Below, one piece after another: positions 31,839 through 31,900 of a DNA stretch of 64,000 bases. The stretch is from Escherichia phage JLBYU22, in the sequence record OK272484.1. One strand, given 5' to 3'. Both the position numbers and the translations under genes were made by a program. Position 1 is the first letter of the stretch. The number at the start of each line of letters is the position of its first letter. The notes under the pieces are model-generated. The model was not told where the DNA came from. It was given only the letters and a program-made list of their open reading frames with translations, and searched no databases.

Positions 31839-31900
31839 TCATGTTATGTCAGTAAGACTACTGTAACACAACACGAGGGACTTGTAAACAGCTTAGTATC
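31839..31900 (-). promoter_or_regulatory. Early sigma70-type promoter cassette for alc (GTTTAC -35, TACAGT -10) plus leader
   Basis: 51-bp near-identical (2 mismatches) to 16682..16732; A/T-rich UP-like region upstream. Confidence 0.55.

Follow-up and report, generated by a model that had tools for sequence, protein, structure and literature searches.

In bacteriophage T4, a mechanism that combines a hairpin with an internal promoter is established for e, soc, 49 and I-TevI (PMC3014915; PMC2988022), and hairpins that sequester the ribosome-binding site (RBS) and carry an embedded promoter are also found at I-TevI, I-TevII, I-TevIII and segB of T4 as well as at mobE of phage Aeh1. Within the class represented by e, soc and 49, a stable hairpin pairs the Shine-Dalgarno (SD) sequence of longer transcripts, which are silent, and the transcript that starts at the internal promoter lacks the 5' arm and can be translated. 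The embedded promoters of this class are late (or middle) and the genes are late, and it has been stated that the RBS-hairpin cases 'are all late genes' (Edgell et al., 2010; PMC2988022).

Another group of related elements are the PeSLs (promoter-early stem-loops; Arbiol et al., 2010; Comeau et al., 2014), in which an intergenic, sigma-70-like early promoter, a stem-loop, an SD motif and an ATG form a unit that is repeated within the genome. Their stem-loops, which in RB49 and phi1 often lie between the -35 and -10 elements or overlap the -10 element and in which G-T pairs have been noted, were read as terminators or attenuators, SD sequestration being absent from their description. PeSL cassettes were further proposed to be exchanged, with break points between the promoter and SD motifs. 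Finally, the early promoters of T4 (P_E; Wilkens and Rueger; Miller et al., 2003; Hinton, 2010) have a GTTTAC -35 element, a TGn motif and a TAnnnT -10 element and are located directly before an early gene (PMC2988021).

The DNA analysed here (hereafter the window) is a stretch of 64,000 nt from Escherichia phage JLBYU22 (OK272484.1), a Tequatrovirus with 97-99.5% identity to many T4-like coliphages, and the genes of interest are encoded on its minus strand. A first-pass annotation had proposed a duplicated 51-nt element at 16682-16732 and 31839-31889, the second copy being located between the rnlA stop codon and the start of alc. The duplication is real, as the copies agree at 52 of 54 bases and a search of the window that tolerates up to three mismatches returns exactly these two matches, with 0.00 expected from 100 shuffles. 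The proposed interval was itself right but is 3 nt too short, the repeat being 54 nt long (Table 1). Similarly, GAGGA and the alc ATG were correctly placed downstream, but GAGGA overlaps the end of the 51-nt interval instead of following it. The position between rnlA and alc is confirmed by annotated relatives and by T4. Likeness between the copies runs from the G of GTTTAC to GAGGA, and the flanks are unrelated and do not align. The minus-strand consensus of the two copies is GTTTACAAGTCCCTCGTGTTGTGTTA[C/T]AGTA[G/A]TCTTACTGACATAACATGAGGA, in which the two differences (n = 2) fall within the -10 hexamer (C/T) and within the loop of the hairpin described below (G/A).

Table 1. Positions of the two cassettes, their parts and neighbouring features in the window, and stems found before alc in other genera.
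Feature	Position	Strand	Remark
Cassette copy 2, before alc	31836-31889	-	Sequence GTTTACAAGTCCCTCGTGTTGTGTTACAGTAGTCTTACTGACATAACATGAGGA; same 54-mer in T4 (AF158101, 136283-136336)
-35 element G-TTTACA, copy 2	31883-31889	-	T4 early-type GTTTAC
Extended -10 element, TGT + TACAGT, copy 2	31860-31868	-	Promoter scan
Predicted transcription start, copy 2	31853	-	About 7 nt past the -10 element, as expected from sigma-70 promoter geometry
SD GAGGA of alc	31836-31840	-	Paired within the 3' arm of the hairpin
Hairpin of copy 2 in read-through RNA	31833-31883	-	About 22 bp; -25.7 kcal/mol; z -5.75 and -6.0
5' arm, copy 2	31859-31883	-	Spacer and -10 element
Loop, copy 2	31855-31858	-	
3' arm, copy 2	31833-31854	-	Leader and SD
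Cassette copy 1, before the alt.-3 homologue	16679-16732	-	T4 counterpart at about 123040-123093
-35 element, copy 1	16726-16731	-	
-10 element TATAGT, copy 1	16703-16708	-	
SD, copy 1	16679-16683	-	
Hairpin of copy 1 in read-through RNA	16677-16724	-	-23.0 kcal/mol; z -5.3 and -5.5
alc ORF	31325-31831	-	Inhibitor of host transcription; ATG at 31829-31831
rnlA stop codon TAA	31893-31895	-	3 nt upstream of cassette copy 2
alt.-3 homologue ORF	16381-16671	-	96 aa; gene served by copy 1
Second alt paralogue	16732-18789	-	Stop TAG (16732-16734) includes the first G of copy 1
Late-promoter motif TATAAATA	20910-20917	-	Just upstream of the first alt gene
Gelderlandvirus alc stem			5' arm TCTCCGTTTAGTT; 3' arm AACTAAACGGAGA
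Karamvirus alc stem			5' arm TCTCCATTTG; 3' arm CAAATGGAGA
Jiaodavirus alc stem			5' arm TCCTCATCAG; 3' arm CTGATGAGGA
Dhakavirus alc stem			5' arm TCTCCTCAT; 3' arm ATGAGGAGA
Moonvirus alc stem			14 bp
Roskildevirus alc stem			5' arm TCTCCTCAG; 3' arm CTGAGGAGA
Bragavirus alc stem			5' arm AACCTCTCATTTT; 3' arm AAAATGAGAGGTT
Kanagawavirus alc stem			Present; sequence again different
Winklervirus alc stem			Present; sequence again different

Both cassettes are present in T4, where they differ at a single base, and a blastn search with the 54-mer gave 997 matches in 499 phage records, that is two per genome, all of them in T4-type enterobacterial phages of the Tequatrovirus kind. The paralogous copies share 96-100% identity, which is no higher than the identity of orthologues inside Tequatrovirus, and this likeness may be kept either by gene conversion or by selection that acts on almost all bases, as far as the few full genomes allow one to judge. 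An exact 15-mer scan of IMG/VR returned 62 loci, most of which are chance matches; about 10 carry the cassette, too few for a test of concerted evolution. A duplicated promoter is per se ordinary for T4-type phages. Unequal crossing-over between the direct copies was considered as a selected function and rejected, since about 15 kb including the DNA ligase gene (gene 30) and gene 31 would be lost or doubled, and such a deletion or duplication would probably be inviable or unpackageable.

Both copies conform to the T4 early class, with G-TTTACA and a TGn-preceded -10 element (TACAGT or TATAGT) set 17 nt apart, and with 9 of 12 matches in the promoter scan for TTTACA-17-TACAGT of copy 2, 10 of 12 for TTTACA-17-TATAGT of copy 1, and the TG present in both. 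The promoter consensus TTTACW-N17-TAYWAT, given for the PST/T4 group in the PeSL work, fits the cassette as well. Downstream of the -10 element, each copy continues with a leader of about 22 nt, the SD GAGGA and the ATG. The alt.-3 copy has independently been annotated as similar to a T4 early promoter in GenBank record MZ726795, and Alc is known as a product of the immediate-early burst (PMC2988021). No T4 transcription-start-site maps were found in the searchable literature. Judged by its sequence, the cassette fits a predicted promoter of the T4 early (sigma-70) type followed by a leader and an SD motif. The first-pass reading as a promoter-leader cassette agrees with all of these in-silico features, but it overlooked the hairpin, which is the organising feature of the element.

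The cassettes share their motifs and their position before an early gene with the T4 early promoters, yet differ from them in two respects. Firstly, 52-54 of 54 nt are common to two promoters, even in the leader and in the spacer, which is normally unconstrained. Secondly, copy 2 shows no A/T enrichment in its proximal UP region. An A/T-rich, UP-like region upstream had been part of the first-pass description, and a tract with 84% A+T does exist; however, this tract occupies the stretch 25-55 nt before the -35 element, past the usual UP position of -40 to -60, whereas the 24 nt adjoining the -35 element of copy 2 are at background (62% A+T compared to a window average of 64%). The corresponding 24 nt of copy 1 have 79% A+T.

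At the RNA level, the cassette is predicted to form one long hairpin, 5' CCCUCGUGUUGUGU-UA-CAGUA-GUCU-UACUG-ACAUAACAUGAGG 3'. The 13-14 nt of spacer right after the -35 element are complementary to the leader and the SD, the promoter spacer supplying the 5' arm and the leader, together with the SD bases GAGG, supplying the 3' arm, while the -10 element is placed high in the stem. When folded from the -35 element to the ATG, the cassette RNA is matched by none of 200 shuffles. RNA that enters from upstream has both arms, whereas the predicted RNA from about +1 of the cassette's own promoter folds with only 0 to -0.8 kcal/mol; as the 5' arm is situated upstream of the -10 element, this RNA cannot form the stem, wherever its exact start lies. 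The Tequatrovirus stems contain G.U pairs, and their sense RNA folds 4.6-7.8 kcal/mol better than the antisense RNA. All five variable positions seen within the genus are either in the loop or switch a G.U pair to A-U or G-C.

From our point of view, these features are best explained by an early promoter that is placed within an SD-hiding hairpin and makes the translation of alc and alt.-3 depend on the transcript, the alt.-3 copy being derived from that of alc, and we consider this explanation as a whole somewhat probable. RNA derived from upstream, namely rnlA read-through in the case of alc and alt transcripts, including late ones, in the case of alt.-3, would form a hairpin of 18-22 bp that buries the SD, and the downstream gene would be poorly translated from it. 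RNA from the cassette's own promoter would begin inside the hairpin and without its 5' arm, so that the SD stays free, and probably only such transcripts leave the ribosome-binding site accessible. As a consequence, alc and alt.-3 would be translated essentially only from their own immediate-early transcripts, an early-only mode that is predicted because the embedded promoter is of the early type. What we infer in this scheme is that the promoter is active and where it starts, that read-through RNA exists, and that translation is affected.

For copy 1, the second alt paralogue would be the source of the read-through RNA, and since a late-promoter motif closely precedes the first alt gene, this copy would also be reached by late transcripts of alt. 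Two tandem full-length alt paralogues are present in the window (16732-18789 and 18793-20889, minus strand; 685 and 698 aa), which share 70-77% DNA identity over several blocks at a spacing of about 2094-2103 nt. At the same position, T4 carries one alt gene, encoding the RNA polymerase ADP-ribosyltransferase, together with the remnants alt.-1 and alt.-2.

The features that define the e/soc/49 class are also found here, namely a predicted SD-pairing helix, an own transcript that lacks the 5' strand, and compensatory change in relatives, the latter in a hand-fitted alignment. The timing, however, differs. The late-promoter motif TATAAATA does not occur in or near either cassette and the embedded promoter is of the early type; moreover, alc is an early gene and alt.-3 is early-promoted. 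The logic predicted for the cassettes is hence inverted, with early-only in place of late-only translation, although their effect, in contrast to that of the e/soc/49 hairpins, is a prediction. We found no earlier account of an early promoter inside an SD hairpin, but older print work on T4 (Liebig and Rueger, 1989; Miller et al., 2003) may contain one. In the text of the 2014 PeSL paper, neither alc nor alt is named.

The cassette also is a compact unit of the kind described for PeSLs (PMC2839356), and its hairpin could accordingly be imagined to terminate or attenuate transcription that arrives from upstream and so to insulate the early gene, the hiding of the SD being incidental. A stem-loop of an RB49/phi1 PeSL indeed cut lacZ expression about as much as rrnB T1 did (Arbiol et al., 2010; PMC2839356), and in MZ726795 the alt.-3 hairpin is labelled as a rho-independent terminator on the basis of a WebGeSTer prediction. 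We nevertheless regard this role as unlikely. The combination of a G+C-rich stem and a U-run that characterizes intrinsic terminators is found in neither copy, as no U-tract follows either stem (tails ACUUUAUGAU and AACACAAAAU), that of MZ726795 included, and the same holds for 11 other genera, where the tails are A-rich (e.g., AACACAAAAUG); the absence of the U-tract leads us to reject the reading as an intrinsic terminator. Terminator scans were negative at both copies: no terminator-like site was detected around copy 2 (31500-32300, including the gap between rnlA and alc), and around copy 1 (16300-17100) the only one lies after alt.-3, with none in 16678-17100. Furthermore, the part that is conserved across genera is the pairing of the SD itself, for which a terminator has no need. 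By sequence, the terminator or attenuator feature of the PeSLs is hence missing, and the location differs from that reported for PST/T4, where the PeSL authors put the stem-loops just upstream of the promoter.

In the annotation of T4-like genomes, such hairpins are likely to be mistaken for terminators. Stem-loops of the type GGGGCCGAAGCCCC, which are followed by T-runs, occur in the window at 4130-4159, 24828-24865, 62804-62841 and 63034-63071 (repeat families D8 and D13); these probably represent the standard intrinsic terminators of the phage, in contrast to the U-tract-free cassette hairpin.

A different role of an SD-containing hairpin would be translational coupling, in which the SD opens only when a ribosome finishes rnlA or alt on a polycistronic RNA. 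The upstream stop codon precedes the 5' arm by 6-11 nt, and a ribosome that terminates there might melt the outer pairs of the SD, so that coupling would result rather than silencing. The stop codon is always near the -35 element, as in TAA-gct-GTTTAC for rnlA and in the TAG that overlaps the G of GTTTAC for alt and likewise in several genera, and the SD pairs are the outermost of the stem and would be the first to melt under a terminating ribosome. In Tequatrovirus, however, the stem of 18-22 bp begins only 10-11 nt past the stop, which means that few pairs would be opened, and a tight spacing between stop codon and promoter is general in these compact genomes. Coupling hence appears rather improbable to us. 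RegB cuts at GGAG. A targeting by RegB was discarded for the cassettes, as the SD of Tequatrovirus is GAGGA and does not contain GGAG.

To see whether the hairpin is selected, we compared the regions upstream of alc in 14 other phages that represent 13 further genera or groups. In nine other genera, a 5' arm begins directly after G-TTTACA and pairs with a stretch that ends on the SD, with a stem sequence that is different each time (Table 1), and Gualtarvirus shows the same logic in a shifted register. Judged from these upstream regions, the SD-hiding early-promoter design is found before alc in at least ten other genera of the Straboviridae, Gualtarvirus included. The hairpins of the other genera are predicted to fold with -14 to -26 kcal/mol, compared to about 0 to -2.4 kcal/mol for the RNAs from their own starts, and the z-scores of the alc-type hairpins range from -3 to -6.

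Since an MAFFT alignment of the natural promoter-to-ATG sequences left the 3' arms out of register and was unfit for pair counting, the stem arms were extracted by hand and anchored on the SD, a procedure that leans towards structure. In the resulting alignment of nine SD-anchored pairs from nine genera, 98.8% of the cells are paired and two-sided changes occur in eight of the nine pairs, as compared to 48-57% pairing in a control with a slid register. The covariation score of 0.883 (0.282 in shuffles) was reached by none of 500 shuffles.

These data also bear on the possibility that the hairpin has no function and that the repeat simply reflects a strong promoter that was recently duplicated or copied by gene conversion, the complementarity being due to chance or a by-product of consensus motifs. 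The 5' arm often starts with TCTCC or TCCTC after GTTTACA, which is the complement of the consensus SD, and the paralogues, as noted above, are no more alike than orthologues within the genus. Yet the complementarity reaches 9-15 bp past the SD core with a sequence that differs by genus, eight of nine pairs covary, the z-scores are low throughout, and every variant seen within Tequatrovirus keeps the pairing. We consider the absence of function to be extremely unlikely.

Outside Tequatrovirus, the stems are perfectly Watson-Crick paired and hence carry no strand information, and as such one could speculate that the inverted repeat acts as DNA, be it as a palindrome or cruciform at the -10 element that modulates promoter firing or mainly as a recombination site. 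Perfect palindromes, as which the stems of most genera can be described, fold equally on either strand; how the early promoters are shut off is described as incompletely understood (PMC3014915), and PeSLs have been proposed as recombination sites. In our opinion, however, a function at the DNA level is very unlikely. The arms differ not only between genera but also between alc, ndd.4 and 30.8 of one genome, and this variation among genera and promoters makes the binding site of a sequence-specific protein unlikely. In every case the 3' arm terminates at the SD, a feature of the RNA level, and the G.U pairs of Tequatrovirus would become A.C mismatches on the opposite strand or in a cruciform.

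The design is not present before every alc gene. In Mosigvirus, the early promoter of alc has only a small hairpin within its spacer, with no sequestration of the SD, in Gaprivervirus an extra ORF lies between rnlA and the alc position, and in Ac42 the gene order at alc is different. From the cases of Mosigvirus and Gaprivervirus it follows that the device is dispensable. The extra small ORF of Gaprivervirus is annotated as 'inhibitor of host transcription' and may represent a partial duplication of alc; the alc gene itself has neither a promoter nor a hairpin directly upstream in the Gaprivervirus phages sampled.

Taken together, the hairpin and its conservation across genera shift the likely function of the element from a strong promoter that is used twice to a switch that chooses which transcripts are translated. 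It is the hairpin design and the covariation, and not the duplication, that make this locus moderately interesting.

As to the origin of the second copy, the regions upstream of alt.-3 were compared in five phages, namely one each of Dhakavirus, Marfavirus, Moonvirus and Karamvirus as well as phage F2, which is filed under Tequatrovirus although its Alt.-3 is only 54% identical. In each of the five, an early promoter occupies this position and the upstream flank is shared (e.g., ...AAAATGTA-GTTTACA), but these promoters contain only a short hairpin inside the spacer between -35 and -10, and their SD is free. The orthologous flank, the lack of the cassette in the other lineages sampled and the wide occurrence of the alc design across genera point to a lineage-specific replacement, and from these comparisons the alt.-3 copy most likely represents the alc cassette that replaced an older promoter in an ancestor of Tequatrovirus. 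The exchange points fall in the shared motifs GTTTACA and GAGGA, and the event resembles the exchange proposed for PeSL cassettes (PMC2839356; PMC4122927). There is no insertion or deletion bounded by the cassette pair, and alc resides in a conserved block, whereas typical PeSLs cluster in hyperplastic regions beside ORFans.

A short hairpin that lies wholly inside the spacer, such as CACCACA-AGGA-TGTGGTA, is recurrent at alt.-3 of the other lineages and at alc of Mosigvirus. Its 3' arm is formed by a GTG-rich element just before the -10 element and its stem varies by genus, a pattern in the sequences which suggests that this hairpin is selected as well.

The SD-bridging design is not restricted to the two cassettes. 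In a scan of the window for promoters of the early type with an SD and an ATG downstream, the same design was found on the minus strand at the ndd.4 promoter (61388-61448), with a 15-bp stem of -23.2 kcal/mol and a z-score of -4.7, and at the 30.8 promoter (25630-25689), where the spacer is complementary to the SD. The promoters of cd.2 (28521-28583) and 30.7 (25229-25297), likewise on the minus strand, have hairpins centred on the -10 element (-20.7 and -19.4 kcal/mol) that leave the SD free and constitute a different sub-type. No such hairpin was detected by the scan at the motA, ndd.6 and frd.3 promoters. Beyond the window, the regB promoter of a Kanagawavirus has an SD-hiding stem of the same kind with 13 bp.

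Additional repeats were noted in the window. The stretches 40226-40310 and 61387-61471 (also 62113-62197) belong to a promoter-leader family with 75% identity over 85 nt (D3, D5 and D7), which links the promoter regions of frd.1 and ndd.4; the junction of frd.1 and frd.2 appears about 75 bp shorter than in T4. A tandem direct repeat of 288 nt is found at 4718-5293, with two copies that are 76% identical (D2).

T4 is the reference system for timed gene expression in phages, and in the reviews of 2010 the hairpin switches all restrict translation to the late phase. The new part of the present analysis, namely an early-gene version of the known hairpin-promoter trick of T4, is a modest twist on this theme. 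Such a version would offer a simple reason at the RNA level why some early proteins, e.g., Alc, cease to be made despite continued transcription of their genes in longer middle and late RNAs. Stem-loops of the PeSL type that overlap a promoter would gain a translational role, instead of or beside that of a terminator, and hairpins of this kind should not be labelled as terminators in genome annotations. The cassette pair would further be an example of the replacement of a promoter region, here that of alt.-3, in which the break points fall within the -35 and SD motifs common to both sites. Considering alc in at least ten genera, alt.-3, ndd.4 and 30.8 in Tequatrovirus and regB in Kanagawavirus, one could tentatively speculate that early-promoter hairpins hiding the SD are a general, so far unrecognised switch of the Straboviridae that restricts translation to a gene's own immediate-early transcript, an extension that we regard as possible but would not yet call probable. 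If true, this switch would be the mirror image of the late-only switch of e, soc and 49, and it would add to the sharp end of early protein synthesis after the shut-off of the early promoters, independently of RegB.
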